Assembly (NCBI RefSeq): GCF_030686945.1
Contig: NW_027122668.1
Location: 60,099-124,098, forward strand
DNA length: 64,000 nucleotides
Origin: Centruroides vittatus
Lineage: Eukaryota
Direction: 5' to 3'
Shown here: positions 2,126 to 48,350 of the stretch, in pieces
How the letters are laid out: every line of letters begins with the position of its first letter
How positions within the stretch are numbered: position 1 is the first letter of the stretch
Program-made: the position numbers and the translations under genes
Notes under the pieces: generated by a model
The model's database searches: none
Seen by the model: the letters and a program-made list of their open reading frames with translations, nothing else
What the model was told of the DNA's origin: nothing

Positions 2126-4568
2126 AAGATTAAATAGAAAAAAAATTAATTAAATTTAAGGTTTTAGTTTAAATGTTAGTATGACAAGGAAAAAAAAATT
2201 AAAAAACCTCTTGCCTTCTTATACTACGTTTGTAAATTGAAACTAAAACCTTAAATTTAAATGATACTTCAGAAATAGCAAAGGAAAAAGTCGTTCAGAT
2301 CTCTTGCGAAGCGACGCTTTTTCCTTTGCATCCTTGCCCACACCGAACGAGACGATCCCACTCGTTGGAAAAGAGAGGAATGATCGAAACATTCCTCCCC
2401 TCCCAGTGCAGCAAAAATGATGTCAACATGGAGACATTTCACTTTTTGGAACAAGTCCGAACAGCGAAATGCCTCCTCTCCGTTCAACGCGGAACAGAGA
2501 ATGCTGTCGACACCTTTTATTCTTGAAGTCGATCCCGTGAAGAAAGAACCCCTTTCGCAATTGATGGAAGAGAGTTCCTCTCCCCGCTCAAAGGGGGAAA
2601 AGGCTCTCTCTTCATCCATTGAGGAAGGAGAACGCCCTTCACATTTCTTCATCTTGTTGGGCCGCAGCCACCGCCAAAACCGCCAGTCCTTCATTCTGTA
2701 AAGAAAGAAAAAATATATATATATATACTGTATATTAATGGGATTCGGATATACTTAATGCAGAAAAAGTTCACGACAAATCGGAATTCGAATAGCTCGC
2801 GTTAGATCCTACCGGAAATTGCTAGAACGTTCCAACTGTATTTGCAGTAGAGACGACCGACCCGGAACGAAGAAACTCTCTTACGTGTAATTTGTATTTG
2901 TGCGACAGAAAATTAAAGACACGCATGCGCGTAGCCATGCGGAAAAGGCACTCGAGCCCAAGTCGTAACAAGTCTTTCGTTCTAGAGCAATTTACCCTAA
3001 CGTGTACCGTACGTCACATAAACGCAACGACGGCACTTAAAAGGGTTTCGTGCGAAGAAATTGCAAACGAGTCGAGCAAAACACAAGACAAACGTACGAA
3101 GAAGCGAAACGTGCCCACAGCCCAATTCGACATTCGGGACACGAATGTTTAAGTGGCACAAAGCATTGGCAGAGGGTTACGTAAGTGTGGAAGATCGACT
3201 GCACTCGGAAAAGACCACCTCGTGGAAAGAGACAAAGAGCCTAAGGAAAGGAATTCTCTGTGTCCAGCCTGTACACATAACTGTTAAGTGTATTAGTATT
3301 AGATGTGTTTGCAGACAATTTAATTCTGGCAAAATAAGCCATTGAAAAGCGTTGTAACTAATACATAAATTGCATGGAGAAGTCGGAGGTCAAAGGGCGA
3401 AATTTTTGACCTGTCCAAGGAACATCCCATGCTTCAGAATACGGTCTCCGTCCATCAATGTTACCAGAGTATATTTTAGTTAAATTACGAGGAATTCGTA
3501 TTTAAAGTTAGTATTAAATAATTTTTAATTAAATTTCTATAAATAATCTTTATTCTTTGACCGTGTTTATAAAATATAAATGAATTAATTACGAAAATAA
3601 ACCAATGAGCAAATACTTAATCCATTTACGGCCTTCGGTCGCATTCCAATGTGGCGGCTCGTTTAAAAGCAAGATTTTCTATAATCGAACGTCCTCTTTA
3701 CCTCGCCTCCCCAAAACTAGAACAAATCGTTCCTCTCGTTCGTCCAGTATTCTCCGATTGACCGACAGCGCAATTTTTACTAAATTTCGTAATATTTCGT
3801 TTATCCGACGCCATTTTAAAAGCGGTTACGTGACGTCATCGAACGTTGGTTATATGAAATATGCGCGTTATAGTTTAGTTACGTAAACGTTAATTAAAGT
3901 GACTTATATATTAAATAAGCGAATTTTATGAATTTACCTGCCCCAAAGAAAATATCGTGTACGTATTCTACACCAAGGAATCAAAATATTATAGTTGTTC
4001 TTGTACGGAAATGGAGAAAAGTGATGGGCCTACTTCTCGAAACGACCGATTTAATTTTCTTTTTATAGCTGTTGTTGAAGCAATTTCTGATAATGGAAAA
4101 TACTACAATATGTGGGAGGCAGATGTTGATCTCTTCTTGTCGACGCCACCAGGACATGTTTTAGACTATTAGCCGTTTGCATGCTACACATCAATGCTAC
4201 TGCATACCTATTAGAACCGGCCCCGAGTCGTTCCAAGCGAGACTTTGTCGGCCTCTCATCGATCTTTCTTATGTGTTATATGAAGCCTATAACCTATGGC
4301 CCAAGTTTGGTTAGATTTGTTGAAATCCGGTCGTGTTAGAAATAATTGGCCATTAAGATCCTAAAACGCGTCGTGATCAAAATGGTGTCGATTTCTCACC
4401 GAAATAATATATTATGTAAGGGATATGGTACATTGAAAACCAACTAAAAACAATTTATGTGCAAGTGTCCTGCGTGCAATAAGAAACTGTTTATACGGAA
4501 GTGTCGCTACTTGTTGTACTTTCAACACCTGGTATAACAAGGTGACGGCCGGATGTTTGAGCTGTTAA

Positions 4569-4675: not shown

Positions 4676-4936
4676 ATACTTTAAAAACTACTCCTTAATT
4701 TTATCTCTTAATAAATTAATGATAAAATACATTTTGTATTTATTAATAATTTATTTATTATTTAAAAACTGTTTGTTTATTTATGTGAAATGAAATTTTT
4801 TTTAATATTAAAATCGCCGTTTACATCCGTCAGAGGGCGCGTTTACCAACGACCGCAATGGCCGAACACGTGTGCTAAAACGTGAGTATAGCTTAATGTT
4901 GGTTGTTATTCGTAAAGAAAGATACAGATCTTAAAA

Positions 4937-7900
4937 ATGTCGGAAACGAAGCAAGAAAACAAGCCACATCGTGTGGCACATAGTGGGAGAAAAGCAGAAA
5001 AGAAGAAAGCAAAGAATCCCCACGTTCAAGACATGACTGCACAGCAACGAAATCCCAAAGCTTTTGCCATTCAATCTGTTGATAAAGCAGCAAGGAAATT
5101 TAGAAGAAAAATGGATATTCAAGAGAAAAAACATCATATACCACTTGTCGATCGAACACCGTTGGAACCACCTCCAATTATAGTTGCTATTGTTGGTCCA
5201 CCAAAAGTTGGTAAAACTACACTTATGAAGTGTTTGGTAAAGAATTTCACTCGTCAAACGTTAACAAATATCAAAGGCCCTGTAACGGTAGTATCAGGAA
5301 AGAAAAGAAGATTGACATTGATTGAATGCAATAATGATATCAATAACATGATTGACATTGCTAAAATTGCAGATTTGGCATTATTGCTTGTGGATGCAAG
5401 TTTTGGATTTGAAATGGAAACTTTCGAATTCCTTAACATATGCCAAGTTCATGGTTTTCCAAGAATTATGGGCGTACTGACGCATTTAGATGTTTTCAAG
5501 AATGCAAAAGCATTAAGAAGAACAAAGAAACAAATGAAACACAGATTTTGGACCGAAATATATCAAGGTGCAAAACTGTTCTATTTGTCGGGTATGATTC
5601 GGGAAGAATATTTGAAAACTGAAGTTCACAATTTGGGAAGATTTATCTCTGTTATGAAATTTAGACCGCTTCAGTGGCAGACATCTCATCCGTACGTTCT
5701 TGTTGATAGAATGGAAGATTTGACTAATTTAGACATCGTTCGAAAAAATCCTGTTGTAGACCGCTGTGTTTGCCTGTATGGATATACCAGAGGAGCACCT
5801 TTAAGAAATAAGAGTCAAGTACATATTCCAGGATGTGGTGATTACCTAATTAAGGAAGTAAGTTTATTGCCTGATCCTTGTCCTCTACCCGATAAAGAAA
5901 AACGTCGATCTTTAAATGAGAAGGAACGTTTAATATATGCTCCGTTATCAGGAATTGGTGGAATAGTTTATGATAAAGATGCTGTTTATATTGAACTAGG
6001 TGGAAGTCATTCTCATACACAAATAAGATCACAACAACCATCTCAAGATTTAGTAAAAATATTAGTTGATACTGAACATTCTATAGACAGTAAAATGGCT
6101 GCCAGTGAATTCAGTTTATTTAGCAATACTAAACCATTAATGGAAGAAGAAATGGACGATTTTCTTAATGAAGATTCTAATTGCAAAAATACAGAATTAA
6201 CTGAAAATAATAGAGAAACAGATAACAAAATACATGAAGAACATACAGAAATTCAGACAGATGAGGATGAAGAAGAATCTGAGAATGAATCATTTATGGA
6301 AGAGAAACCAGTAGATGATGATGTTGTTAATACAAACACTTCTGAAAAATATGCTTTTGCTGACAGTGATGATGATCTACAGTGGGATAAAGATGATATA
6401 GAAAACAATGATGTTAGATCAAAACAGAAAAAAGTAACTTTTGAAGATGATGACGACAAAGAAGAGGAGGAGGAGGAGGGATGCTTGAAATGGAAGGAAA
6501 ATCTGGCCCAGAAAGCAGCTGATACATTTTATGAACGCCAGAAAGATACTAGAAATCTGCATAAACTTGTTTATGAAAATGATCTTTACCAAGATGACGG
6601 TGATAAAGATGATGATGATGATGATGATGATATTTTGAAAGAAGTGAAAAATGATAAAATGAAATCATTTTTAAATGGTAGTGATTGTTCGAAATTTCAA
6701 ATTCCAGTAATGCGAGATTGGCAAGATGAAAGTGTAAGTGATTTCATTAAAGATTGTTTCAGTGTTGGTAAACTGGGATCAGAGGATGATATGATTGCAT
6801 CATCTGAGAAGGATGATGAATTGTTTGGTGATTTTGAAGATCTTGAAATGGAAGATACTGGCAATAATAAAGAAGACGAAAGTGATGATAGTGAAGGTGA
6901 AGAAGAGAATGTAGAAAAGAATGAAGATAAAAAGGAAACAAAAACACCAGAAGAAAAACGAATGGAAAGGAAACGCAAATTGAAAGAAATGTTTGATTCG
7001 GAATATGATAACAAAGATGGAAAATCGTATTATGATACTCTCAAAGAAGAATTGGATCAGCAAGCAAAATTGAACAAAACTGAATTCGATAACATGACTG
7101 ACAATCTGAGAGTGCAGTATGAAGGTTATCGACCAGGAATGTACATCAGAATAGAATTAGATAACATACCCTGTGAATTCGTCACTCATTTTGATCCATC
7201 TTATCCAGTAATTATAGGAGGATTATTAAAAGGAGAAGATTCTATGGGATATGTACAAGTTCGTTTAAAGAAACATCGTTGGTATTCAAAAATTTTGAAG
7301 ACTCGTGATCCTCTAATCATATCATTAGGTTGGCGCAGATTTCAAGTTATGCCTCTTTACTCCATTCAAGATCATAATGCAAGGTATAGGTTATTGAAAT
7401 ACACTCCTCAGCATCTTCATTGTTTTGCTTCATTCTGGGGTCCAATAACACCCCAAAATACTGGTCTTATTGCCGTCCAGTCAGTTTGTGATATTAAACC
7501 AGGTTTCCGAATTGCTGCTACTGGGGTTGTGTTAGGATTGGATAAATCAGTAGAAATAGTGAAAAAGTTGAAACTTTGTGGATATCCATTTAAAATATAT
7601 CGAAAAACAGCATTTATCAAAGACATGTTTCATAGTACGTTGGAGGTAGCAAAATTTGAAGGTGCAGCAATTAGGACAGTCAGCGGGATACGTGGACAAA
7701 TTAAAAAAGCCATTCGTTCACCCGAAGGTGGCTTTCGTGCATCATTTGAAGATAAAATATTATTAAGTGATATCGTATTTTTACGTACATGGTATACCGT
7801 TACAATTCCGAAATTTTATGCAGTTGTGACGTCATTATTACTACCACCCGCACAAAAAGCCAAATGGCAAGGAATGAGGACAGTTGGACAGTTACGTTAT

Positions 7901-8299
7901 GAAAGAGGTCTTCATGCAAAAGTTTCTCAAGATTCTCTCTACACTCCTGTCGAAAGGAAAAAGAGGCATTTTGCTCCTTTAACTATTCCTCGTGACTTAC
8001 AGAAAGAATTACCGTACAGAGATAAACCTAAACTGGAACCCACAAAGAAAACTCCGAGCATCCAAAGTAAGAGAGTGGCAGTTATATTGGAACCACACGA
8101 AAGAGAGGTTGCTAATTTAATGAAAACAATGTCTGCTGTTCATAATGAGAAGATAAAAAGAGAGAGAATTAATATGTGGTTAAGAGTAAAGGCACACAAG
8201 AAAGAAAAAAGAAAATTAGAAGCAAAACAACAACAAAATCAAAGACAGTTGAAAAAAAGAATTTTTCGTATTTTGGGAAAAATTAAAAATAAGAAATAG
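4937..8299 (+). CDS. BMS1: Ribosome biogenesis protein BMS1 homolog (GTPase), apparently intronless CDS of 1120 aa
   Basis: Uninterrupted 1120-aa ORF. The N-terminus carries the Bms1 GTPase core: IVAIVGPPKVGKTTL P-loop, LTHLD, FWTEIYQGAKLFYLSG. Acidic internal low-complexity region and basic C-terminus are typical of BMS1/Bms1p. Length is comparable to fly and human orthologs. Confidence 0.9.
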   Translation: MSETKQENKPHRVAHSGRKAEKKKAKNPHVQDMTAQQRNPKAFAIQSVDKAARKFRRKMDIQEKKHHIPLVDRTPLEPPPIIVAIVGPPKVGKTTLMKCLVKNFTRQTLTNIKGPVTVVSGKKRRLTLIECNNDINNMIDIAKIADLALLLVDASFGFEMETFEFLNICQVHGFPRIMGVLTHLDVFKNAKALRRTKKQMKHRFWTEIYQGAKLFYLSGMIREEYLKTEVHNLGRFISVMKFRPLQWQTSHPYVLVDRMEDLTNLDIVRKNPVVDRCVCLYGYTRGAPLRNKSQVHIPGCGDYLIKEVSLLPDPCPLPDKEKRRSLNEKERLIYAPLSGIGGIVYDKDAVYIELGGSHSHTQIRSQQPSQDLVKILVDTEHSIDSKMAASEFSLFSNTKPLMEEEMDDFLNEDSNCKNTELTENNRETDNKIHEEHTEIQTDEDEEESENESFMEEKPVDDDVVNTNTSEKYAFADSDDDLQWDKDDIENNDVRSKQKKVTFEDDDDKEEEEEEGCLKWKENLAQKAADTFYERQKDTRNLHKLVYENDLYQDDGDKDDDDDDDDILKEVKNDKMKSFLNGSDCSKFQIPVMRDWQDESVSDFIKDCFSVGKLGSEDDMIASSEKDDELFGDFEDLEMEDTGNNKEDESDDSEGEEENVEKNEDKKETKTPEEKRMERKRKLKEMFDSEYDNKDGKSYYDTLKEELDQQAKLNKTEFDNMTDNLRVQYEGYRPGMYIRIELDNIPCEFVTHFDPSYPVIIGGLLKGEDSMGYVQVRLKKHRWYSKILKTRDPLIISLGWRRFQVMPLYSIQDHNARYRLLKYTPQHLHCFASFWGPITPQNTGLIAVQSVCDIKPGFRIAATGVVLGLDKSVEIVKKLKLCGYPFKIYRKTAFIKDMFHSTLEVAKFEGAAIRTVSGIRGQIKKAIRSPEGGFRASFEDKILLSDIVFLRTWYTVTIPKFYAVVTSLLLPPAQKAKWQGMRTVGQLRYERGLHAKVSQDSLYTPVERKKRHFAPLTIPRDLQKELPYRDKPKLEPTKKTPSIQSKRVAVILEPHEREVANLMKTMSAVHNEKIKRERINMWLRVKAHKKEKRKLEAKQQQNQRQLKKRIFRILGKIKNKK

Positions 8300-8386
8300 A
8301 TTTAAGTTATTTTTAAATTAAATATTTGTTTAAAAAAACTACTTTTTAACATTGTTTAAGGAAATATTTTATTTTTTTTTTAAGAA

Positions 8387-8392
8387 AATAAA
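8387..8392 (+). promoter_or_regulatory. Candidate polyadenylation signal AATAAA ~90 nt downstream of the BMS1 stop
   Basis: AATAAA hexamer lies in AT-rich 3' flank. Position is plausible for the BMS1 3'UTR. Confidence 0.3.
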
Positions 8393-9576
8393 ATAATATT
8401 TTGTTGATTGATGTGAGATTTTATGATAATACTTCAATATATTGTTTGTAAGATTAGATTGAAAGTTATTTTAAAACAAATGTTGTTGAGGAAATATTGA
8501 CAATTCTTAATGGCAATACTGAAATTTATATAACAAACATTAGGTTAAACATATAGTCTCTGTAATTTAAGGAATTCTCATAATAAACACATAATATTGT
8601 CAAAATTAGAATACAGTTTTAATAATCTTAATCTAATTATGCATTAAGATGCATTTTTGGAATAGTTATGCAAATCTTTTTATATCAGATGTTTCGGGAT
8701 AATATTTTGAATAGAGAATGTATGCAGTCTTAGAGAAAGGATTGAAGCAGTCCTTGTTTAGAGACTTTTACAGACTGCTAGAGCATGCTATTGGCAATAA
8801 ATAGACAATTATATAAGATGACATTTTAGGTTAACTACACAGCCTTATATTCTACCTCAGTGATGTGACCACTCTATTAGATATCTTTAGCCTGCCACTG
8901 TGGGGAACAGCTCTATAGTTTATTGTTGATACTGTGCAGTATTTCTGTTGAAGTTGCCTGTATTGGGTGTAACTATAGCTGAAGAAATAATTTGCTGTTA
9001 ACTAATCAGTATGTATCAAAATTAAGATTGACACAGGTTTGTATGTTTTATTTTTTACTAGGAAAAGAACTTTAGGAATTGACAGTTTCTGTCAGTTCCT
9101 GCAAAGTTCTTTCCCTAGTAAAAAATAAAACATACAAACCTGTGTCAATCTTAACTGGATTACATAACAAATTTATCACTTTATCATCAAAGGTGACTAC
9201 TGTAGTGACAAAAATTAGTAGTATATATTTCATCACTTTATTTGAAAAGAAACTAGGATATAAAAATAAAGGCACTGTTATGGTCTTGAAATGTGTCTTG
9301 CCTTTAATGGAAGAATGATGTTTACATGTAGATCCAAATTTATGCTTAAGTTATAGCCTTTCAGAAGTACAAATTCTATTATTAAGGAAGATAATTTGTG
9401 CGTTTCAATTTACTGGTTATTTCTGTGTAAACATTTGTAAAAGATGTTAAAAATAAGTCAATAATCTGCAAGACCTATAAATCTCAATTCATTAATGGAA
9501 CAAACTTTTCTTTACAAAAGAAATAAAAACTGATGACTTCAGTTTGTGAGTAATCTCGACAGTATAATCAAATATC

Positions 9577-10080
9577 AAGATCCCACCAGTGGTCGAGTGG
9601 ATAAAACCACCAAACACTGGTAGCTGGTTACGGGTTTGTGCCTAGCCAAGTGGAGTTTTCCAGATTTTCTTTAGGTTTGTAACACCTAAATAAGGGCCAG
9701 TGGTGCATTATCCTAAGATAAGGTGACCAGAAATCCCTGGTTTTGCCAGTTTTTAATGTTTGATTGTAGAATCAATCTTTGGATAGAGCAATTTCATTAG
9801 CATGTCAATATAATAACCAAAGTTTGACCAGTTTTAGGTCCCATTTTCACTGATTCTGAAATGTGTCCTAGTTGTATTGTAAATATTATGGTTAATTGAC
9901 CTAACTTCAGAAAGGGGAATTGCCTGGGAGCCCCAAACCAATGCTTTATAAGAAAATTTTTCCCAAAAAACCCTTGAAGAAAAATGTCTGAAGTAAACAC
10001 TACATGGGGCCCATGAAGTTATAACACGCCACTGATAGGGGCCAGTTTCCCATAAAAGACCTCCTGGGAAACATCAACTA
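9577..10080 (+). mobile_element. SINE-like repeat, full-length copy (~500 bp)
   Basis: Head is GATCCCACCAGTGGTCGAGTGGATAAAACCACC..GGAGTTTTCCAG. Tail is GATAGGGGCCAGTTTCCCATAAAAGACCTCCTGGGAAAC. Both segments recur at 11041-11232 (inverted, internally deleted) and 48166-48350. Confidence 0.5.
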
Positions 10081-11040
10081 TGTGTCACATTACCATCCAA
10101 ATGAATATTGAATCATTTATTATTCATTCCTGTTTATGACTATATCAAACTTGAAAGTCGTCGTTATTTTAATTTCCTGTAAAAATAGTCTTGACAATCC
10201 AGAAGAACAAATTTTCACTTTAGGAGGATACAGGCGGATTGAGCACAGTTGAGCAAAAGCATCATGTGATGAAGCGGCCAGCTCGGGATCTCGCGTGAAA
10301 ACAGTCATGAGTTGTGACTTTCGGAAGCTCCTACTCGTCACTGAAATTCTATCAACCAATATGAGATTTTACGTTTTCCCTTATTTCTCTCGGTCTTGTT
10401 CATTTCCCCTAAATTTAGGGGGAAACTCCTCAGTAGTAGTCATCACTACACATCGCTCTCTGTTGTTCAAATGCTCTCTGTTGAAGCTTTTAAAATCTGG
10501 TGTTTATTCTTGTTTATTAAATCACATGCAATTTCCTGTGACATCGTGGAAACAGAAAACAGGATTTTATTTGTATCTATTGTGACAAGGAATTTATTCA
10601 TTGCTTTACTTTGAAAAGGTATTTGCAAAATATATACGATGACAAATTTATAGATGAAGGAGTTTAGTTGCTTTAGTGGTAAATTAAGATGTAATTTTTT
10701 AGGAAAATATTATCTTTTCATTGGAGTGTTGACTATACATTTACAATATTTGTATAAATTGTTGGTAATACACCAAACTCCTGATTATCTGTGCTAATCA
10801 GTGCATAGAAAACCAGGAAACTACGGATAATCCAACATAGCCCTCTAAACTAAAAAAAACTATTCAGAGGTTTCAAATGAACTTCAATACAGTTGAAATT
10901 TACAACAGTTATAACACAATGTAAGTGTGAGTCCCAAGTTACAGAAGCTGAAATGTATATTTAACCAATAAAGATAAAATGTAGATTTCTTCTATGTACC
11001 TCTATTGTATTGTAGGATTGGATTGTTTGTATATGGCAAC

Positions 11041-11232
11041 GTGACACAAGGGCGATCTGCCAAGGGGGACGTGCCTCCTGGGAGGACTCTCTATGGGAAA
11101 CTGCCCCTATTTAGATGTACAAATGTGAGAAAACATGGAAAACTCCATGTGGCCGGCCCATCGGTTAGGTGCAAACCCACAACTATCAGTATTCGGTGGT
11201 TTTATCCACTTAGCCACTAGTGGGCTTTTAAT
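11041..11232 (-). mobile_element. SINE-like repeat, internally deleted inverted copy
   Basis: The reverse complement matches the head and tail of the 9577-10080 copy (GGTGGTTTTATCCACTTAGCCACTAGTGGG, GGGAAACTGCCCCTAT). Confidence 0.5.
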
Positions 11233-11900
11233 TTTAGGACTAGTACAATATATTTTTTAAATCTGCTGTTTATAAAATAATCCAAGACTAATGACTCACC
11301 TCACTTCTGTCTGTTAGAATTGACATTTGAAGGAAGAAAGAAATGCTGAATGTTGCTTATGATACTTTGTCATTTTACAGTAATTATAATATTTTGATGA
11401 TGCATGGATAACAGGGAGTTTGGTGTATTTATTATAGAGTATATAACAATTATAGCAATCTGTATTCCCTTTAAATATATATCTACCTTACTAATGTTGA
11501 AAGTTCAACCACTTTAAAATTTGTTTATAGTTAAAATGAGGATTTTTCAGCCAATATTCTGAAAAATTGATCATCATCATGGTATTTATCATCATTATCA
11601 TTGTGTTTTGCAGTACATTGTATTCCTAGCTTATAAATGTTAAGGAACCAGAGTATTTTTATTTACAGAAATACAGCATATATCAGATTTGCCAACTGTC
11701 CGTCAAGAAAATCATATAAACAGACTTGAATTTCTCTCTAAAACTAACAAAATTTTCCCTAAAATATAAAATATTACTCTTGACAATCCAGAGAAACAAA
11801 AATTTTTACTTTGGCATGCAGGCAGTATGTGCAAAATTGAACAAAAGCATCATGTAATAAAGCAACCTGCTCAAGGTCTTGCTGTCAGATTCTCATTTAA

Positions 11901-13210
11901 CCCTAGATAACTAAACTTAATTCTCAGTTACATTATAATTACACATTTGTCGAGCAGACCAAGCATTAAAAAACATTAATATCAAAAAAAATTGTTTAAT
12001 AAAAATAGGAACTTGTTACATGGCACAATAGTATGGGTAAGTAGGAACTAAATAAGAACAAAATATTTAGGAAATAAAATTATACACAGTTGCTACTTAT
12101 GTTTACATTATGGGGCTGCAAATTGCATTCTTGCATTTCTTGCAATGGTGTTTTGTCATTCGTCGAGCTTTCGATGGACATAAATAGCATATTTTACGCA
12201 GATTCAACATAGAATGAGTAGGAGCTTCTACACTGGGCACATCACCTAGAATATTTTGAATCATGGTTCTGATATCACGCCTCAAATTCATCGTCTGTAT
12301 CTGCTGTTGTAGCCAGAGCTCCATGAGTTGGTCTCCCATCTTCATAAAGAAATCTTGCCAAGACATCGGATTTATTTTTGTTTCTAATGTTATTAGAGAC
12401 CTAGGTGTAGACAACCACTTAGGTTCATTTTTTCCATATAGAAATCGGGTAGTTGGCTGGAGAACACGTGGATTGCTATTAAGAGTATTTGAGTTTTGAA
12501 TCTTATTTACGCTGATATTCTCACCTTGAGAGTCATCTGATTTTATTTGTGTTCTTTGCCTCTTACTAGGTCGTATGTGATCGTCGTCAGACTCCGAGGA
12601 TCTACTCAACAAATCGGATTCACTGCTAGTGTGCTAGTGTATTTCCTCCTCTAAATTATCCTCAATTTCCCGAAAATGATTCGTCAGATTCCTCCCCATA
12701 CTCGTCTTCCGTTTCTGAATTAATCCATTGTTTTATCTGTTCTTCTTGTCTCCTCAAATCCATCTAAAAATAAAAAACATAGGATATGAGAATAATAAAA
12801 ATATATATATAACAAAAACGAAAAAAAAGACGATCATTGTACCAAAAGTACACATTATATCGCCAGTCTTCAATTATTTCATTAAACATATACTCAAATA
12901 GATATAATTTATCCTGAATATATAAAAAAAACATTCTGTACCTATAAAACAATAAAAATAAATGTAATGTACTGTACATACCTTTGCAACAAAGTTACGT
13001 AGTAACTAAACTTTCATCGAGCAGACAACAGGGATGGCCATAAGTCAATTTCTAATTGACGTGTGAACACAATTGCATTACACACTGCACTGTTTATTCA
13101 AATTATTAAGGTAGAAAAAGAATGACCGGAAAAGGGCACGGCGAAGTTTGTGAACTTCACTTTCGAGCGGAGGTGCGTCGTCGTGTGGACAAATGATTAG
13201 TTATCTAGGG
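11901..13210 (-). mobile_element. Internally deleted piggyBac-like DNA transposon (non-autonomous, 1310 bp) with intact TIRs and TTAA target-site duplication
   Basis: Left end is TTAA|CCCTAGATAACTAAAC, right end is GATTAGTTATCTAGGG|TTAA. These are perfect inverted termini of the CCCTAGA type, flanked by TTAA on both sides (11897-11900 and 13211-13214). The internal ORF has piggyBac N- and C-terminal homology. Confidence 0.8.
12103..12612 (-). CDS. Remnant piggyBac transposase ORF (N-terminal acidic region fused to the C-terminal Cys-rich domain; DDE core deleted)
   Basis: 169 aa. The N-terminus SESDDDH...RFLYGKNEPKWLSTPRS resembles the piggyBac N-terminus (..RGKNKHCWSTSKS..). The C-terminus CYLCPSKARRMTKHHCKKCKNAIC matches the piggyBac CRD (CTYCPSKIRRKANASCKKCKKVIC). 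No catalytic domain lies between them. Confidence 0.7.
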   Translation of the reverse strand: MLSRSSESDDDHIRPSKRQRTQIKSDDSQGENISVNKIQNSNTLNSNPRVLQPTTRFLYGKNEPKWLSTPRSLITLETKINPMSWQDFFMKMGDQLMELWLQQQIQTMNLRRDIRTMIQNILGDVPSVEAPTHSMLNLRKICYLCPSKARRMTKHHCKKCKNAICSPIM

Positions 13211-13729
13211 TTAAGTTTTTCCCCTAAATTTGACAGAACTACATTGGTATCACTGCCATATATATATCAAAACAAAATGCAAATGTATTGTTGCTTTCTA
13301 TACATATTTCTACATATTCCTTTTCCTAATTTAAATATTCTATTATTATTAACAAAAATATAATTTTTGTAATATTGTACTGTGCTGTTATTATTCAGAA
13401 TATACATAAATATATTTTATACATTTCTGCCTGAAAAGGTGTAGGTGTATGCAGCCAGGGCCCCAAGAAAATGGAGAGTTGTCGATACAAAGCCGATTTT
13501 TGGGCCCCCTTTCAGAGATCCTGCTTATACAAATAACGTAATGATATTAGCCCGTTCATTTTCATTTGACCAAGTTTTAACCCAGCATGAACGTTTTCAC
13601 TTCGTATATTCTCACCAGCTATAACAAGATTATCGCCTTTTTTCTTTTATTCATTCCAGAAAAGGAACTGCTTGCCATTTTAATAAGAAAAGTGACTAAA
13701 ATTCCGTAAATACTCTGTAAATTGTCGGT

Positions 13730-13744
13730 AAACTCGCGAAAGTT
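13730..13744. repeat. Target-site duplication (left copy) TAAACTCGCGAAAGT of the LINE insertion
   Basis: Identical 15-mer at 14597-14611. Confidence 0.75.
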
Positions 13745-14596
13745 TTATTAAAGTTTAAATATATACATCACTTAGATGATGATAATCATCTATTTTCATA
13801 CATAGCGTATCTGACAGCATAAGAAACACATATACATCGATTAGGTCTATACATTATTATTCATAACTATTTACATTTACTGTTATAAGGTAAAAGGTCT
13901 GTACATTAGTATCACATTATTAACATTTACATAACCCAAGCCAACAAACTCCATCGTGGAGTGCTAGGGTTAACCCTAAGAAAAGCAGATAGACATGAGA
14001 CAAATTGTCATTCATCATTAAAGATGAACTCCTCACCATTATGTCTCCATATATAATCTTCCGTCCCCTTGTAATATTCCTTCCACTCATTTTCACTTAA
14101 TGTCTCATTATCATACTTAAGTTTTAGCTTCGCTTCCTCTCTTATTTTGTTAATTATTATTCTAGAGCTAATTTTTCTTTTATCGAAAATTGCTAGACAT
14201 CTGGCTTTCCATAAGTGTCTTTTCGTCAGTCCAACCATCCAGTTCATCAGATACGAACTTTGATTTCTTATTTTATAATTAATTTGATACTTAATATTGA
14301 TCCACTCTAATTTTACCCTACAAATACGATTTACCCATGACCATACCGATCTCGCAGGGTTACATTCATAAAAAACATGGATAATTGTCTCATCCCTTCC
14401 ACAAATAGAGCATCGAGCATTACGACGCCTGTGGTATCTACGTAAATAATCTCTCGTCATTACTACATTCAGTAGAATTCTCCACGATGTCTCTCTCCAT
14501 TCAGATGGTAGTATATTAATATTTTTCCATACAGCAATCCAGTTTATATACTTATCCTTCACACTTTCACTAGTGCATTGTTTGAACAAATATTTA
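13745..14596 (-). mobile_element. 5'-truncated non-LTR retrotransposon (LINE) 3' fragment, ORF2 C-terminal zf-RVT-type (C-terminal zinc-binding domain of reverse transcriptases) tail
   Basis: ORF 14008-14589(-) carries WRILLNVVMTRDYLRRYHRRRNARCSICGRDETIIHVFYECNPARSVWSW (zf-RVT CCHC pattern C..C..ET..H.F..C). The element ends in an A-rich tail (..TAATAAAA) on the minus strand. It is flanked by a perfect 15-bp direct repeat. Confidence 0.75.
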
Positions 14597-14611
14597 TAAA
14601 CTCGCGAAAGT
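14597..14611. repeat. Target-site duplication (right copy) TAAACTCGCGAAAGT
   Basis: Identical 15-mer at 13730-13744, bracketing an 852-bp insertion. Confidence 0.75.
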
Positions 14612-15304
14612 AGTCAAAAGCAAACAGAAACACGCGTTTTCGACTTGGAACACCCACGAACAATGTGACCACGAGAATACGCGCGCGACTCAGTCGCGGT
14701 CGCCTGTGCGGCTATAGTGTGACCATGGGACACGTGCGATTAATTTACTCGTGTGTTGAAAAAGTTAAAATATATATAATTTATTTTTTATATCAAACTA
14801 ATTTTTAAATTTTATTTATAATTTTGAAAGTGGGGTTATTTCGTTTTCAATTCTGAATCAATTTCTATTAATTTTTGGCTCCTAATTATGCCCGAAAGAG
14901 GACGCTGTAGTAGATGTAAACACGTGTTTATACACGTGTAAGTTCAAATATTTGATTCTTAGTTAGTATTTAAACGTCTTAAATATTGGCGTAGCCAATT
15001 AAATTGAATAATGCAATGGTGTGGAACGTGAAATTTCTTTAAAAATCCACTTGCAGCCATCCAAAACATAACGAAAATGACGAATTAAAAGTATATAAAT
15101 GCAACAAACTCTAGAAAATTGCAATATATCCTGTTGATAATTATCTCTGCAAAGCTTTTCTTATAATTTTATATAGTAAGATAACTTATCAAATTAATTA
15201 TCATTGAAAATTTGACCTTGATAGTTTGACTTAAAATTCAACAGTAATCTAATCTTGTTAACTGTCTTAAATTCCAGCTAGGAGTTTTAATAAAAATAAC
15301 CAAA

Positions 15305-15385
15305 ATGGCAAGTGTAATAGAAACTCTTAAAGTCAAAGATGTAAGATTTCCCACATCTCTTTCCTCAGATGGAAGTGATGCAATG
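15305..15385 (+). CDS. ENOSF1: ENOSF1-like (L-fuconate dehydratase / mitochondrial enolase superfamily member 1) exon 1
   Basis: Translates to MASVIETLKVKDVRFPTSLSSDGSDAM, matching the ENOSF1 N-terminus (VRDVRFPTSL..GADAM). GTAAGT donor at 15386. Confidence 0.85.
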
Positions 15386-15450
15386 GTAAGTTTATGTAAT
15401 TTAATAATATTATTACACTGTAATTTTAAATGACGCTATCATTATTTTAG

Positions 15451-15553
15451 CATAAAGATCCAGACTATTCTTGCGCCTATGTGATATTGATTACAGATAC
15501 AAAATTAGAAGGACATGGCTTTACATTTACTTTGGGTAAAGCTACAGAAGTAG
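15451..15553 (+). CDS. ENOSF1: ENOSF1-like exon 2
   Basis: HKDPDYSCAYVILITDTKLEGHGFTFTLGKATEV matches human HTDPDYSAAYVVIETD..GCGITFTLGKGTEV. TTTTAG acceptor, GT donor, phase consistent with exon 3. Confidence 0.85.
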
Positions 15554-15627
15554 GTGTGTATTTTTTATATGTTTTTATAGATTTGTTAGTTGCAAATTTT
15601 AGATATTCAAAAATGTTTGTCAAATAG

Positions 15628-15743
15628 TTGTATGCTGTATTAATGCCTTAACCCCAATTGTTGTTGGAAGAAATTTGAATGATATATTTTCAAATTTTGC
15701 TGGATTCTGGAGAGAACTTACTAGTGAAAGTCAGATGAGATGG
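15628..15743 (+). CDS. ENOSF1: ENOSF1-like exon 3
   Basis: VCCINALTPIVVGRNLNDIFSNFAGFWRELTSESQMRW versus human VVCAVNAL...FYRQLTSDGQLRW. AG acceptor, GTGAGA donor. Confidence 0.85.
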
Positions 15744-16355
15744 GTGAGAAAACTATGTTCATTGTATCGTGTAATTTTTTAAGATTTATGTTATTTTTCT
15801 CTGGAAGTAATATGAAACGATTATAAAATGATTTGTTTATTGAAACTTCATTAAATTATTCAATAATAAATAACATGTTAACAGTAATTGTAAATTGTTC
15901 TGCCTCACTTCTATTAGATACTTATATTTTTCACATAGAACAGTGGTTCTCAATTGGTATGCCATGGTACTGTACATTGATTGCTATCACTATAACCTTT
16001 TAAATTCTAGCAACATATTTAAATTAATACAAAACTGATAATGTTTTTGATAGTTTTAAAAATGATCTTCATCAGGCACATTCAACAAACTGATAATTCA
16101 AACAACAATTTGGAATTCCATTCAAAATATTTTTAACTACAATGCTATTGGGTAAAAAATCTTGATGTGGTTTATATTAAAACGCATACAATAGTAAATT
16201 TGTGTTATATGTCAACGTACATTAAAAAGCAATAATGAAGTCAATCAAAGGAGACATATTTACAAGTCTTTATACTAATTCATAGCATATTTTCCTGCAC
16301 ACAATATTGAACAAGTGTCTTTATGGTTAATTTCCTTGCTCTGTAGAGCAGATTT

Positions 16356-20029: not shown

Positions 20030-21118
20030 TTCTCGACATAAGTTCTTCCAGAATTTAGGCATTTATTGTAATATGGCATTATTTTCTGTATTCCCTGATC
20101 AAAGAAATTTGCCACCTTGGAGTTCAATCATCCACAAATGTCATGCATCAGTTCCACATTGGACTCAAAATGCTATCCCCCAACCATACCTACATTTTTG
20201 GGAACATGAAAGTCATTCAGTGCAAGGTCAAGGCTACAGACAGGGTGATCAAACAACTCCCGTTAAAACTGTTGGAGCAATACCTGTGTGTGTGCATTGC
20301 CGTGGACAAGAACTATGCCCGAGGACAACATTCCTCACCTCTTATTATGAATCACCCATCAGTTTTTTTAGTATTTCACAGCACACCTGTGAATTATTAG
20401 TAATCTAAGGTTCCATAAAATCTGTTAGCAACACTTATCCTTTAGCAAATCTAACCTGACTGTGTTCTTCAGCTTGCAAAACGTGGATAACACCATGCAC
20501 CTCACATTTGGTGGAAACTTTGATGACGATCCATATTCCCATCTATACTGTACAGCAAGCACTTAACAAAATGTCCAACCGCACGGTCAGCCGTGAGTCA
20601 ACATATCACTGTTTATTTCTGCGCATGTGCCAGGTTGCTGCAATAAGTGATGCAGCCGTGCCAGTTTAACAGAGGTTAACTTACAAATAGACCTCATTAA
20701 ATGCATTTAAATTATTAAATATTTATTTTACAATGTTTCAATGATATTCTTCTGTTGTTGTCAATATTCACCGTATAATTTTATTTAACAACTTGAAGAT
20801 TATTGAATTAATTTGCCTAGATTCGAATCCATGTCAGAAAACTTAAAAGATTTTCATGTGTGGTCTGTCAGGCCCTGTCTCTCATCATTATTCTCCGACC
20901 ACACCATTGTGGACTTGATAGTACCCATGATGGAGATGGAAGAAAGGACTTCTTAATGATTATATTCAAAATCATTAAATTTATGCAAAATTAATTGTAT
21001 TTGAGTATAAAGTAATTGAATACTTAAAGTATTATCTGCATAAAAATTGCTTGCTTTATAAAATGTAAATTTTAAATGATTCAATAGAAGTTTTAATGAT
21101 AAATCTTGTTAATTATAG

Positions 21119-45500: not shown

Positions 45501-48165
45501 CTTTAAAAAAAATTTTTTATATTACTTGTTTTATGGGAGTTTTATCAAATTAATTAAATCGTTCCAAACTTCCATTTGACCGATTTGACTTTGGTAAAAG
45601 TTTTTAAAACTCTATTGGATATTATTATGACATCAGCAGGTTTTTTTGTTTTTTATTCAGTAAAACTTTTTTCCCATACCTTTTTTTCGGTCCCCTCGTG
45701 TTTTAATAGCAAAAATATCGAAAATATTGTGTTATATTTGAACAGATGCGGTAAAGTTAGCTCCTCTCCGGTTTATACCAATATTCCCCTGAAGCATGAG
45801 AACTACCCGGGAAAGCTGACACCAGCTGTTCTCAAGGACAACCGGTTGGTAAACAATGTAGACTGCACGTGTGAAATTTCACGCCTTATTAAATGAAATA
45901 ATAATAATCCGTGCAGCTATATTTTTCAAATAAAATCATTCATTTTAAATTATTTTTAATTTTTTATATAGTTTTTCTGTAAAAACACTTTTTGGGGGTG
46001 TTTATTTCGCGGCAATTATTTCCCGGCAAATTTTTTTACTAATCAGATTCGCATTTGAATGGGAATAATTATTTAATATAAAAAATAAATTACTTGGGGG
46101 TTTTCCAAGCGCCATTCCATGAGGAACAAAGTAACGAAGGAGTTAATGGTTAATGTTACCTATGGTTCCAAGATAGCGGCTCGTCTCTGATTCCAGCAAA
46201 TAACAATTTAAACAATTTTCTGACTAATATAATTAAAATTATTTAAACTTACAGTGAGGGCTTTTCTTTTTAACATGTTGTTCCCAATAGCCATTTTATG
46301 CTGCAAAGCGTATATTATTTCCATTTTCTTAGGTACAACTAATTTATATTTTTTAGGCAATACGACGAAATGCTGAATTTCACTTTTGCGTATTTTAAAT
46401 GAGTAATACAACACTAACAAACGAGCTGAAAAATAAAATGATTCATTTAAATTATTTTCAAAATTTATTTCTCTAAATTCTTTGTAAAATATATTTATCG
46501 CGATAGCTTAAAAAATACGTATTGAAAATTTGGGATTTTCATTTCACAATCACATAACTGCTAACTTGATCTTATCAATGTCGTCTATTCAGAAGCTCGA
46601 TCGAGACCAAAACAATATCCATCACGCAAAACGTGAAAAAATGCAGCAGCTCTGAAAGAGGCGATTGGAACCTATCACAGCTGTAGACCATGCCCACAGG
46701 ATTAAAATGCCAAATGGTGATCTATATGCAACCCTTCGCGAGATACAGCCCTCTGAAAGCAGCCTATCTGAACTTTTAAATACTGGGGTAAAATTTAATC
46801 AAGTAACAACAGCCGAAACTGCACTTCTGGATGTATAGTTCTTACGTCACTATTCATAAAGATGAGGTGTGAATTCTCGGGTATTCATTGGTGATAGTTC
46901 CACTTATCGATAATTTTTTAAACTAATGTCCCTCTTGTCAAAGAACTCCCATGCTGACAATACTTACCATGCAAACTGCATTTCACTCCAATAATTCTCC
47001 CATCTTTTTAAAATTTTCAGATTTTTTATGGTCTTTTTGCCCACTATGTATTATACACGGACTGTTTACTACACTGCTATATCTCACGAAAGACCATCGG
47101 TTAGTTTGCCTTTTTTTAAATCCTATTGGCATGGTATACAGCTCTGGTAAGGACGTATCGCCTCATTCGAGAGCTGCAATTTTACTCATACATCAAAAAA
47201 CATGAAAGCAAATCAAACTTTTGACAAATATACAGGATTAATTAAGATGCACAACTTACACGTAAATAAGAGTTAATACATAATTTTTAATTTTTAATTA
47301 ATATATTTAAATACAGCCAACTTACGAATGTTAATCTTTCCATTATGAAAACAATACATTCTTTTAAATGCGTAACAATACGTTTCACGAACTTTAGCGG
47401 GTTGATTTAAGATGGCAGATTCCATTTCATTTCTAAAATTGTCAAAAACATGTTCATTTATATTTCTCTTGTTTTCTAATTTTGGTATGGAGTTATAAAG
47501 CTTTAAAATTGCTTCCACTAATTGCGTAGTATTATTTTTCATTATCTTAAATACATAAAAGTGCAGAAATATTTTATAAAAATCCTGTAAAATAAAATTT
47601 TTAATTAAGAATTATGGTTTTATTTTAAATATATTAACAATATTACTCACTTTAATATAACTTCAAAGTTAAAAACACTTAAAATGCACTCTTAGTTAAA
47701 GGTCACCTTCTCCCTTCGCACAAAGATTTTATAACTTTTCCATCCCTCTGGAATTATTCGACATTAATTAAATATATTTTTTAAAATATATTTTAATTTC
47801 GTTTATTTAAATAAATATTTTAAATAAATTTTACTGACATTTGTAGTAAAATTGACGGTAATTCAAATACAAATAATTTTAAGTAGTTAACGATATACTT
47901 TGGTCTTTCCAAAACCGTATTAATATAAAACCGTATCAAAATAAAAGGTTTATTATATAATATTAATAAATAATTAATAAGAATAAGTGTATTTATTAAT
48001 ATCTGCTTTATAAAACTGAATTTTGGCATTTAAATATTGAAGCTAAGTAATTGAATGGATGGAATAAGGCAACGCAATACTTGGACGATTTGCTTCCCAG
48101 GAGGACTTTTATGGAAACTGTTCCCTAATTACATGTTACATATGTGAAGAAAACCCGAATGATCC

Positions 48166-48350
48166 TACATGGATGACACCCGATCCAGTGTTCGGTAGTT
48201 TTATCCACTCGGCCACTGGTTTAGCGGATATACAGATTCAAGGTCTGTTATATTTAATCTTTGCTGGATTAACCAGGCCAGAATCGAATATGTTTTCAAT
48301 GAGCCAGGAGCGCAAGATCACTGTCACGTTGTTGGGCGTGTGGGGATCGT
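48166..48350 (+). mobile_element. SINE-like repeat, third partial copy
   Basis: GGTAGTTTTATCCACTCGGCCACTGGTTTAG resembles the head of the 9577 family. Confidence 0.4.

Follow-up and report, generated by a model that had tools for sequence, protein, structure and literature searches.

The window analysed here, a stretch of 64,000 nucleotides from Centruroides vittatus contig NW_027122668.1, very probably carries at positions 11901–13210, on the minus strand, a non-autonomous copy of a ~2.48-kb piggyBac-like transposon, shortened by an internal deletion, decayed by mutation and lodged in the nuclear DNA of the scorpion. The element is an ordinary genomic fossil with one unusual feature, namely that all of its identifiable relatives are found in moths and butterflies. 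The evidence tips slightly towards a history in which a family otherwise known only from these insects crossed between Lepidoptera and a scorpion lineage and, once C. vittatus and C. sculpturatus had separated, left at least this copy in a segment specific to the former. The features of the element and its surroundings are listed in Table 1.

Table 1. Features of the piggyBac-like element and its host segment (positions in the window; 5' and 3' in transposase sense)
Feature	Position	Strand	Remarks
Context segment, ~4.5 kb, repeat-rich, carries the element	9068..13560		absent from the orthologous C. sculpturatus locus
Left-flank short repeat copy	11775..11872	plus	partner 10186-10284, 76% over 101 bp
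3' flanking TTAA	11897..11900		
3' TIR CCCTAGATAACTAA	11901..11914	plus	
Right-end sub-terminal repeat	11926..11965	minus	core CATTTGTCGAGCAGAC at 11944-11959, 44-59 from 3' tip, 29-nt spacer
1-nt deletion in Cys-rich domain (TTTGCAG-CCCC) and out-of-frame tail	12080..12122	minus	ancestral stop TAA at 12080-12082
Open frame, 176 codons	12103..12636	minus	bounded by TAG (12634-12636) and TAA (12103-12105)
Internal deletion junction ACACCTAG / GTCTCTAAT	12398..12401	minus	~1,152 bp missing, codons 124-508
Native transposase start, ATG and 32 codons (MDLRRQEEQIKQWINSETEDEYGEESDESFSGN)	12662..12763	minus	ended by frameshift-induced stop
Putative 5'-UTR intron, 218 nt	12764..12981	minus	GTATGT...TTTTTAG, 79% A+T, ends directly before ATG
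Left-internal sub-terminal repeat copy	12993..13026	minus	core GTCTGCTCGA at 13017-13026, 185-194 nt from 5' tip
Left-end sub-terminal repeat CATTTGTCCACACGACGACG	13176..13195	minus	16-35 from tip; inverted partner of 11944-11959
5' TIR CCCTAGATAACTAA	13197..13210	minus	perfect match to opposite end
5' flanking TTAA	13211..13214		presumed target-site duplication copy

Element boundaries and terminal inverted repeats

Without the flanking TTAAs, the element measures 1,310 bp. The string TTAACCCTAGATAACTAA at 11897–11914 and its exact reverse complement at 13197–13214 form an 18-nt pair with 100% complementarity, in agreement with an earlier note on this DNA that had described perfect termini, TTAA flanks and the same length. 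The terminal inverted repeats (TIRs; CCCTAGATAACTAA / TTAGTTATCTAGGG) match at 14 of 14 positions, beginning with 5'-CCC and ending with GGG-3' as is characteristic of piggyBac elements, and the CCC...GGG inverted repeat on which the earlier reading depended is therefore present.

Homologous elements with the same ends were identified in four other genomes: in Pectinophora gossypiella (L001), as full-length copies of 2.47–2.48 kb in L007 and L008, and as a 1.32-kb copy in L002. Similarity breaks off exactly at TTAA/CCC...GGG/TTAA and the flanks are unrelated, with TTAA standing on both sides here and at all four of these insertions. The sequence of the 5' TIR is identical in L001, L002 and L007 and differs by one mismatch in L008. 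Within the 64-kb window, the element is present as a single copy. The sole other near-match to the TIR, at 20397–20410, was attributed to chance because it contains two mismatches and has no TTAA. Scans for tRNA genes and Rfam families across 8800–14800 returned no matches.

Internal deletion and the full-length relative

Alignment with the full-length element in L007 places sense positions 1–817 of the scorpion copy at L007 27–855 and sense positions 816–1318 at L007 2008–2510. The reconstructed L007 transposase comprises 615 aa and contains the DDE_Tnp_1_7 domain (PF13843) at residues 152–505 (E=2.9e-71), whereas residues 124–508, including the whole catalytic domain and its three Asp, are deleted in the scorpion. 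Since this domain is present in L007 and absent here, the copy is a derivative of a piggyBac member and is not autonomous. The parts that were kept are the 5' region, the first 123 and last ~106 transposase codons and the 3' UTR, and the repaired scorpion protein is 58% identical to the L007 transposase over residues 1–123 and 67% identical over residues 509–614. The Pfam piggyBac model is confined to the deleted domain, so that Pfam searches with the 169-aa ORF of the earlier note and with the repaired 228-aa protein yielded no piggyBac family match; a FYVE zinc finger, below threshold, was all they returned. The proposed loss of the DDE catalytic core, and the assignment to the piggyBac superfamily as an internally deleted, non-autonomous element with intact termini, are both confirmed by these comparisons together with the TIRs and the homologous termini.

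A deletion shared ancestrally by the scorpion and Pectinophora copies was considered and rejected: the 5' breakpoints are only a few codons apart, and the 3' breakpoints differ by 52 nt, that of the scorpion being further in. The junctions in L002, Mythimna and Chilo are clearly different, and the breakpoints differ in every species. Interrupted gap repair after excision is the usual origin of internally deleted derivatives, and the deletion described here presumably arose in this way. The copy itself would have integrated at a TTAA through transposase-catalysed insertion.

Sub-terminal repeats, putative intron and possible mobility in trans

Three sub-terminal repeat copies were identified inside the TIRs. 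The left-end repeat forms an inverted repeat (I1) with the right-end copy (71% over 31 nt) and is kept in Pectinophora and L002. The left-internal copy forms a direct repeat (D1) with 11926–11959 (76% over 34 nt), and its core is conserved across species except for a single T/C variation. In comparisons with the relatives, the sub-terminal repeats were found to be conserved. Their spacing is asymmetric, with one repeat 1 nt from the 5' TIR, another 29 nt from the 3' TIR and the third copy internal. This arrangement resembles that of Trichoplusia ni piggyBac, in which the repeats occupy positions 17–35 (LE, a 19-bp repeat), 180–196 (LI) and 45–63 (RE), compared with 16–35, 185–194 and 44–59 here (PMC5861402). 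The three sites therefore correspond in placement to those that the T. ni transposase binds, and a corresponding function in this element is putative.

Directly upstream of the native ATG, a putative 5'-UTR intron was delineated. L001, L002 and L008 share its GT/AG boundaries and the adjoining exon sequence, and its interior does not align.

Because the terminal and sub-terminal repeats sit as the T. ni transposase-bound sites do, the copy could be mobilised in trans, which is plausible given its intact cis elements. Excision and re-insertion would depend on the same nucleus also expressing a cognate full-length transposase. Protein homology searches found no source of such a transposase among annotated Centruroides proteins; transposable element genes are often masked before annotation.

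Host locus and insertion site

The segment around the element sets C. vittatus apart from C. sculpturatus. At the orthologous C. sculpturatus locus (L006), only ~24 nt separate the conserved flanks and the whole of 9068–13560 is missing, while the flanks on either side of the segment are collinear and 79–94% identical. Dispersed scorpion repeats, which also occur at ~48091–48220 of the window and in L006, form a mosaic across the segment. Direct and inverted repeats lie within it, and at its left edge 64 nt of the flank are duplicated in inverted orientation.

The flanking sequence had been described earlier as a repeat with a paralog at ~10140–10420, which was suggested as an empty-site reference. 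A paralog was indeed identified, though for the left flank only: the two copies (Table 1) lie 1,589 bp apart, both within the 4.5-kb segment, and a separate 14-mer match is located ~110 bp beyond the 101-bp alignment. The alignment ends ~25 bp before the insertion site, a ~90-nt indel is present, and the paralog has no TTAA at that place, so that the site is not crossed and the copy was discarded as an empty site. The C. sculpturatus locus is equally uninformative on the target-site duplication because the whole stretch is missing there. For these two reasons, duplication of TTAA at the present site is presumed from the behaviour of the family.

The absence of the entire segment, rather than of the element alone, from C. 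sculpturatus raises another reading, in which the element was a passenger in a segment that was inserted, duplicated or rearranged in C. vittatus, or that was present before the two species separated and was lost from C. sculpturatus. The repeat mosaic and the inverted flank duplication at the left edge are in line with such a history, which we regard as unlikely though plausible. The boundaries of the element, on the other hand, are clean TTAA/TIR junctions, which imply that it once transposed into the sequence now directly adjoining it, wherever that sequence resided at the time.

The window also contains a BMS1 ORF at 4937–8299. A homology search matched it over 100% of residues to the C. 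vittatus protein XP_067140076.1, which marks this scorpion as the host.

Lepidopteran relatives and candidate horizontal transfer

All named relatives of the element, found through protein annotation that samples Lepidoptera heavily, are lepidopteran and belong to Pectinophora, Mythimna, Chilo, Spodoptera, Parnassius (two species), Euphydryas and Melitaea aurelia. Family members include LOC126369782 (Pectinophora gossypiella), PYW08_014324 (Mythimna loreyi) and unnamed proteins of Chilo suppressalis, Parnassius apollo, Parnassius mnemosyne and Euphydryas editha. Among the family contigs (L002–L005, L007 and L008), L002, L004, L007 and L008 carry no species name. An exhaustive profile-free search of 1.84 billion representatives returned no closer non-lepidopteran named relative, and the observed distribution of named relatives is patchy, consisting of Lepidoptera and one scorpion.

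Excepting the interior of the intron, the whole 1.3 kb aligns with the Pectinophora and L002 elements at ~70–77% identity. Over the short alignments on which the comparison for horizontal transfer rests (74 codons, ~250–500 nt), nucleotide identity is 67–76% between the scorpion copy and its relatives and 67–72% among the relatives, and third-position divergence is 0.34–0.42 and 0.43–0.58, respectively (74 codons). The scorpion copy thus nests within lepidopteran diversity, which, together with the lepidopteran identity of all named relatives, suggests horizontal transfer. The family may have reached the scorpion lineage from Lepidoptera or via a vector shared with them, and predator–prey contact or a shared virus or parasite could have provided the route. 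No viral vector was found when viral and metagenome contigs were scanned for the 18-mer TTAACCCTAGATAACTAA; the matching loci (2 and 7, respectively) were ascribed to chance because nothing else of the element matches beyond 18–22 nt.

An unlikely alternative is that the family is of ancient arthropod origin and descended vertically in scorpions, with the lepidopteran bias arising as a database artefact. Transposable element genes are rarely annotated in arachnid genomes, four related contigs come from samples without a species name, and selection for transposition may conserve the ends and coding parts. Against vertical descent, the non-coding ends of the scorpion and moth copies are still ~70% identical, and the scorpion copy is no further from the lepidopteran copies than those are from each other, being closer at third codon positions. 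The search of 1.84 billion representatives likewise speaks against it. The conserved housekeeping protein BMS1 provides a further yardstick, as the scorpion sequence is only 49–54% identical to the listed insect orthologues. The N- and C-terminal parts of the transposase, compared with L007, exceed this at 58–67%, including the poorly conserved N-terminal 123 residues at 58%.

Decay of the coding remnant

The native start region matches the N-termini of P0001, P0002, P0007 and L007. Its ATG (12763) opens a 33-codon ORF in a frame different from that of the fusion, and relative to the other family members an extra G in a GGG run within 12665–12676 represents a 1-nt insertion that causes a +1 frameshift after codon 32. 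The fusion frame takes in an N-terminal remnant, which reaches ...KWLSTPR, then the deletion junction and a C-terminal remnant whose Cys-rich domain is truncated. No ATG occurs in it until codon 91, which leaves 87 aa, and for ~ten codons past the junction it does not follow the ancestral frame. A 1-nt deletion, causing a -1 frameshift, cuts the Cys-rich domain after the fifth Cys, so that five of the eight zinc ligands are left and the counterparts of H585, C590 and C593 drop out of the open frame; at the C590 position, Ser stands even when the frame is repaired. An N-to-C-terminal fusion ORF of 169 aa had been reported previously. The acidic N-terminal part and the peptide CYLCPSKARRMTKHHCKKCKNAIC are indeed encoded on the minus strand, but that length had been counted from a TTG under the bacterial table, and the frame spans 176 codons between stops.

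The ratio of differences at codon positions 1+2 to those at position 3, over 74 indel-free codons, is 0.47–0.58 between the scorpion and its relatives and 0.23–0.33 among the relatives, which indicates relaxed constraint on the scorpion remnant. Judged from its sequence, the remaining coding region is a pseudogene, as it carries the +1 frameshift, a TAG stop, out-of-frame codons and the -1 frameshift that truncates the C-terminal, DNA-binding Cys-rich domain. The element would make no functional protein and would be unable to move by itself. The assembly was produced from PacBio CLR reads (PMC11304958), and the three 1-nt indels, two of which fall in G runs, could be assembly errors. Even then, the TAG stop, the Cys-to-Ser change at the C590 equivalent and the ~1.15-kb deletion would remain.

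The opposite view, that the fusion frame is a functional gene without the DDE domain, either an end-binding regulator or repressor of transposition comparable to the P-element KP or a domesticated gene, is very improbable and largely refuted. In its favour, the frame is open across the junction for 176 codons, comparable N–C fusion ORFs occur in several Lepidoptera, and the 261-aa ORF of Pectinophora runs uninterrupted between its ATG and its stop codon and encodes the Cys-rich domain in full. Such recurrent fusion ORFs are expected from ascertainment bias, since protein databases display only the derivatives that keep an ORF, and the breakpoints differ from species to species. The earlier description of an in-frame fusion ORF is overstated for the scorpion: translation from the native ATG would follow a different frame, a TAG lies ahead of the open frame, which has no ATG before codon 91, and the post-junction stretch departs from the ancestral frame. 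Its zinc finger is without three of eight ligands, with a fourth substituted even after repair, and the substitution pattern is that of relaxed constraint. An exact look-up of eight possible ORF products in a collection of 15 billion proteins found none of them.

Lepidopteran contaminant DNA mis-assembled into the scorpion contig would fit the lepidopteran affinity of all named relatives and the error-prone CLR reads behind the assembly (PMC11304958), but it is scarcely credible, as the element is embedded among dispersed scorpion repeats, has C. sculpturatus-collinear DNA to its left and right and is only 67–76% identical to any known lepidopteran copy, and the animals used for RNA sequencing ate crickets, not moths (PMC11304958).

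Relationship to known transposon systems

The scorpion element shares several features with members of its own family, including the position of the intron, the sub-terminal repeats, 67–76% nucleotide identity over the ends and coding remnants, and a tendency to form ~1.3-kb N–C deletion derivatives. It differs from the lepidopteran copies in its arachnid host, its own deletion breakpoints and a more decayed coding remnant. No published name for the family was found, and literature searches on the TIR strings CCCTAGATAACTAA and CCCTAGATAAC returned nothing relevant. CsuPLE1.1 of Chilo was considered as a member and rejected on account of its different TIR (CCCAGATTAGCCT).

The founding member of the superfamily is the T. 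ni piggyBac (IFP2). Besides the repeat positions, the two elements share the TTAA target and CCC...GGG termini of 13–14 bp, and the C-terminal part of the scorpion protein matches residues 502–583 of the T. ni piggyBac structure 6x67 (E=9.5e-7), including the C5HC2 cross-brace zinc finger (residues 559–582). Identity reaches only ~35–40% over the C-terminal 80 residues. The TIR of T. ni piggyBac is CCCTAGAAAGATA, whereas that of the present element is CCCTAGATAACTAA, and the repeat core is GTCTGCTCGA here and TGCGT in T. ni. Furthermore, the family of the scorpion element has a putative 5'-UTR intron, and the scorpion copy lacks the residues equivalent to ~103–500, including D268, D346 and D447.

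Internally deleted non-autonomous elements are represented by Ds from Ac, KP and other P-element derivatives, human MER85 and bat npiggyBat. As in these, the cis ends are kept, the catalytic region is deleted and transposase is needed in trans. In size, however, the scorpion element is no MITE, and the 64-kb window contains one copy of it.

Significance

Taken alone, this is a routine transposon annotation of one dead, deleted piggyBac copy. The comparison with its relatives, in turn, defines an apparently unnamed piggyBac-like family, characterized by the TIR CCCTAGATAACTAA, a full length of 2.48 kb that includes a putative 5'-UTR intron, a transposase of 615 aa and T. ni-like left-end, left-internal and right-end repeat sites, whose near-intact lepidopteran members could be candidates for new transgenesis tools. 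In the scorpion, the element may be of use for marking lineages or populations because its segment distinguishes C. vittatus from C. sculpturatus. It also represents a candidate horizontal transfer from insect to arachnid, or the reverse. If full-length copies, or copies with the same junction, occur elsewhere in the scorpion genome, the family, the termini of which are already defined in full, would provide a documented case of piggyBac transfer between insects and arachnids.

Element termini and internal deletion

TTAACCCTAGATAACTAA is found at 11897-11914 and its exact reverse complement at 13197-13214; once the TTAAs are excluded, the scorpion element measures 1,310 bp (11901-13210). Elsewhere in the 64-kb window, the sole near-match to the terminal inverted repeat (TIR), at 20397-20410, has two mismatches and no adjacent TTAA, and was rejected as chance. 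Both termini are thus genuine and exactly located, in agreement with the intact, TTAA-flanked 1310-bp element described in the earlier note.

Protein searches brought up short proteins from Lepidoptera and fragments of contigs, and the DNA behind these matches provided comparator elements, including one from Pectinophora gossypiella (L001) and three on other contigs (L002, L007 and L008). In all five insertions, the scorpion copy included, similarity is bounded exactly by TTAA/CCC...GGG/TTAA and the flanks are unrelated. The ends of L007 (TTAA followed by CCCTAGATAACTAA) are identical to those of the scorpion element. Joining its two ORFs across a single frameshift gives a 615-aa transposase with DDE_Tnp_1_7 (Pfam) at residues 152-505 (E=2.9e-71), whose motifs ITVDEQL, ITMDNWF and GAVDTVDQ are assigned by homology to the T. 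ni catalytic positions D268, D346 and D447 (PMC4273485, PMC5381638). With perfect ends and one frameshift, L007 is the closest to an autonomous element among those found and a possible reconstruction template.

At the DNA level, sense positions 1-817 of the scorpion element equal L007 27-855 and positions 816-1318 equal L007 2008-2510, so that ~1,152 bp are missing at the junction ACACCTAG/GTCTCTAAT (window ~12398-12401). The indel-repaired scorpion protein aligns with L007 transposase residues 1-123 (58%) and 509-614 (67%), with no alignment between. The loss of the whole catalytic core reported previously was borne out.

Features of the scorpion element and its comparators
Feature	Position	Strand	Observation
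L007	L007 27-2510 (Logan ERR13948509)		2,476 bp between TTAAs; full-length element
L008			2,469 bp; full-length; one mismatch in each TIR
L001 (Pectinophora gossypiella)			1,363 bp; short derivative
L002			1,320 bp; short derivative
Native ATG	12763	-	opens MDLRRQEEQIKQWINSETEDEYGEESDESFSGN, stop at 12662 (three-frame translation)
Upstream part of next frame	to TAG 12634-12636	-	ends ...EIEDNLEEEIH (three-frame translation)
176 open codons	from TAG 12634-12636 down to TAA 12103-12105	-	three-frame translation
+1 G in GGG run	within 12665-12676	-	frame shifted after codon 32 (relative to Pectinophora, L002)
TAG stop	12634-12636	-	sense codons in relatives
Frame past junction	~ten codons past junction		open frame SLITLETKIN; ancestral VSNNIRNKNK in another frame
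Further 1-nt insertion	within 12361-12373	-	brings register back
1-nt deletion, TTTGCAG-CCCC	within 12106-12122	-	frame ends ...AICSPIM*
Left-end repeat copy	13176-13195		1 nt inside 5' TIR, positions 16-35 from tip
Right-end repeat copy	core 11944-11959		29 nt inside 3' TIR, positions 44-59
Third, internal repeat copy	12993-13026		near 5' end; core 185-194 nt from tip

Coding remnants and deletion derivatives

What is left of the coding sequence is on the minus strand. Its structure was read from three-frame translation, and lesions were called by aligning it to the elements of Pectinophora and L002. The 169-aa in-frame fusion ORF of the earlier note proved to be a TTG-started product of bacterial-code ORF finding; the earliest ATG within the 176-codon frame is codon 91. 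No domain was recognised in a Pfam search of this ORF. Its C-terminal half aligns with residues 502-583 of the T. ni piggyBac transposase 6x67 (E=9.5e-7) and also matches 5lme, the structure of the isolated Cys-rich domain. The T. ni domain, a cross-brace C5HC2 zinc finger, coordinates zinc through C559, C562, C582 and H585, and through C574, C577, C590 and C593 (PMC5861402). The scorpion open frame keeps the first five Cys, the last three zinc ligands are gone, and the C590 equivalent is Ser even with the frame repaired.

Across 74 indel-free codons, the ratio of position 1+2 to position 3 differences was 0.47-0.58 between the scorpion copy and its relatives, as against 0.23-0.33 among the relatives, a more even spread that fits neutral decay. 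Because the published assembly was built on PacBio CLR reads (PMC11304958), the three 1-nt indels could be assembly errors; even so, the gene would be disabled by its stop codon, the Cys-to-Ser substitution and the ~1,152-bp loss. The fusion frame is thus open by accident and is not a gene.

Derivatives of ~1.3 kb or similar were observed in Pectinophora, Mythimna, Chilo, L002 and the scorpion, with a different junction in each. The Pectinophora derivative (L001 4001-4786, CM044457.1; annotated by NCBI as LOC126369782) encodes an intact 261-aa ATG-to-stop N-C ORF with a complete Cys-rich domain; a DDE-less DNA-binding product would be more plausible here than from the scorpion copy. Such recurring N-C derivatives could be taken to mark a selected repressor. 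We do not read the recurrence as evidence of this, since protein databases reveal only ORF-keeping derivatives, and for the scorpion copy the idea is contradicted by its lesions. Internal deletion derivatives are a familiar outcome of interrupted gap repair.

Cis-acting sites

Besides the 14-bp TIRs, the scorpion element carries a sub-terminal repeat (core GTCTGCTCGA / CATTTGTC), whose blocks rank with the best-conserved non-coding sequence in the cross-species alignment. The three copies match in position the T. ni sites at which the Cys-rich domain of the transposase leaves a footprint, namely the left end (LE, 17-35), left-internal site (LI, 180-196) and right end (RE, 45-63) (PMC5861402), and by this analogy they are putative transposase-binding sites. 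A 218-nt stretch at 12764-12981 (79% A+T, GTATGT...TTTTTAG) ends right before the ATG; its boundaries and flanking sequence are kept in L001, L002 and L008 and its interior is unalignable, and it is read as a putative 5'-UTR intron. The known cis requirements all appear intact, so mobilisation of the scorpion copy in trans is a possibility rather than a demonstrated property.

Host locus

An intronless 1,120-aa ORF at 4937-8299 (+) is 100% identical to C. vittatus BMS1 (XP_067140076.1), a ribosome biogenesis GTPase that clusters with its C. sculpturatus orthologue; in L006, the orthologous C. sculpturatus locus, it is likewise one uninterrupted ORF (10001-13366). Because it is intronless at such a size in an arachnid, it may be a retrogene replacing or accompanying an intron-containing parent.

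L006 is collinear with the window at 4677-9067 (94%), 13561-13743 (79%) and 14732-15816 (91%), and ~24 nt stand in place of window 9068-13560. This 4.5-kb segment, specific to C. vittatus in this comparison, encloses the element together with its immediate flanks and the paralog proposed earlier as an empty-site copy (~10140-10420). The segment holds pieces of dispersed scorpion repeats, also present at window ~48.1 kb and elsewhere in L006; it is therefore genuine scorpion DNA rather than contamination. The paralog match comprises 101 bp at 76% (10186-10284 against 11775-11872) and a 14-mer ~110 nt beyond; the alignment stops short of the insertion site, where the paralog has no TTAA. Duplication of the TTAA at this locus is thus presumed; the element may have inserted in situ or been carried in with the segment, and the segment itself may have been gained by C. 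vittatus or deleted from C. sculpturatus.

Exactly on the left edge of the segment, 64 nt of conserved flank are duplicated in inverted orientation (9010-9073 and 9103-9166, 91% complementary, 29-nt loop). This sequence is single-copy in C. sculpturatus, and the arrangement points to a boundary rearranged by fold-back or template switching. Inside the segment, ~100-nt inverted copies of a dispersed repeat (9571-9670 and 11128-11235, 79-85% complementary) lie 1.5 kb apart, with more copies at window ~48091-48220 and L006 ~3181-3351 and 4878-4957. This may be a SINE/MITE-like family; tRNA and Rfam searches gave no match. Another ~1 kb of the window (13744-14731) is likewise specific to C. vittatus, with ~77 nt in its place in C. 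sculpturatus; its 193-aa ORF (14008-14589, minus strand), in which a zf-RVT domain was recognised (E=6e-10), is a 3' fragment of a non-LTR retrotransposon.

Relatives and possible horizontal transfer

The species-named relatives from the protein searches are all lepidopteran: Pectinophora gossypiella, Mythimna loreyi, Chilo suppressalis, Spodoptera exigua, Parnassius apollo, P. mnemosyne and Euphydryas editha. The contig L003 (run ERR13605516) derives from Melitaea aurelia. No arachnid proteins were found among the transposase homologues, although the searched database includes Centruroides proteins. In short alignments at both ends, nucleotide identity was 67-76% between the scorpion copy and the others, equal to or above the 67-72% among the others, and third-position differences over 74 codons were fewer between the scorpion and each relative (0.34-0.42) than between relatives (0.43-0.58). 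The poorly conserved transposase N-terminus is 58% identical between the scorpion and L007, and the conserved scorpion BMS1 shows just 49-54% protein identity to the insect orthologues listed. This pattern fits what horizontal transfer would predict and seems hard to square with >500 My of vertical descent. On these sequence comparisons, we lean modestly towards horizontal transfer of the family between Lepidoptera and the scorpion lineage. Scans of viral and metagenomic collections with the terminal 18-mer returned isolated chance matches only, and therefore no vector was found.

A Spodoptera exigua homologue (P0008, 306 aa) annotated as "cytochrome c1" is a chimera: cytochrome c1 accounts for its first ~160 residues, and what follows is the N-terminus of the transposase of this piggyBac family. 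It is probably a gene-model artefact from an insertion in or beside the gene.

Overall, the scorpion element is an ordinary, decayed, non-autonomous piggyBac derivative; the central reading of the earlier note stands, and its fusion-ORF gene and empty-site copy do not. The mildly interesting point is the arachnid host of a piggyBac family that is otherwise lepidopteran among its named relatives.
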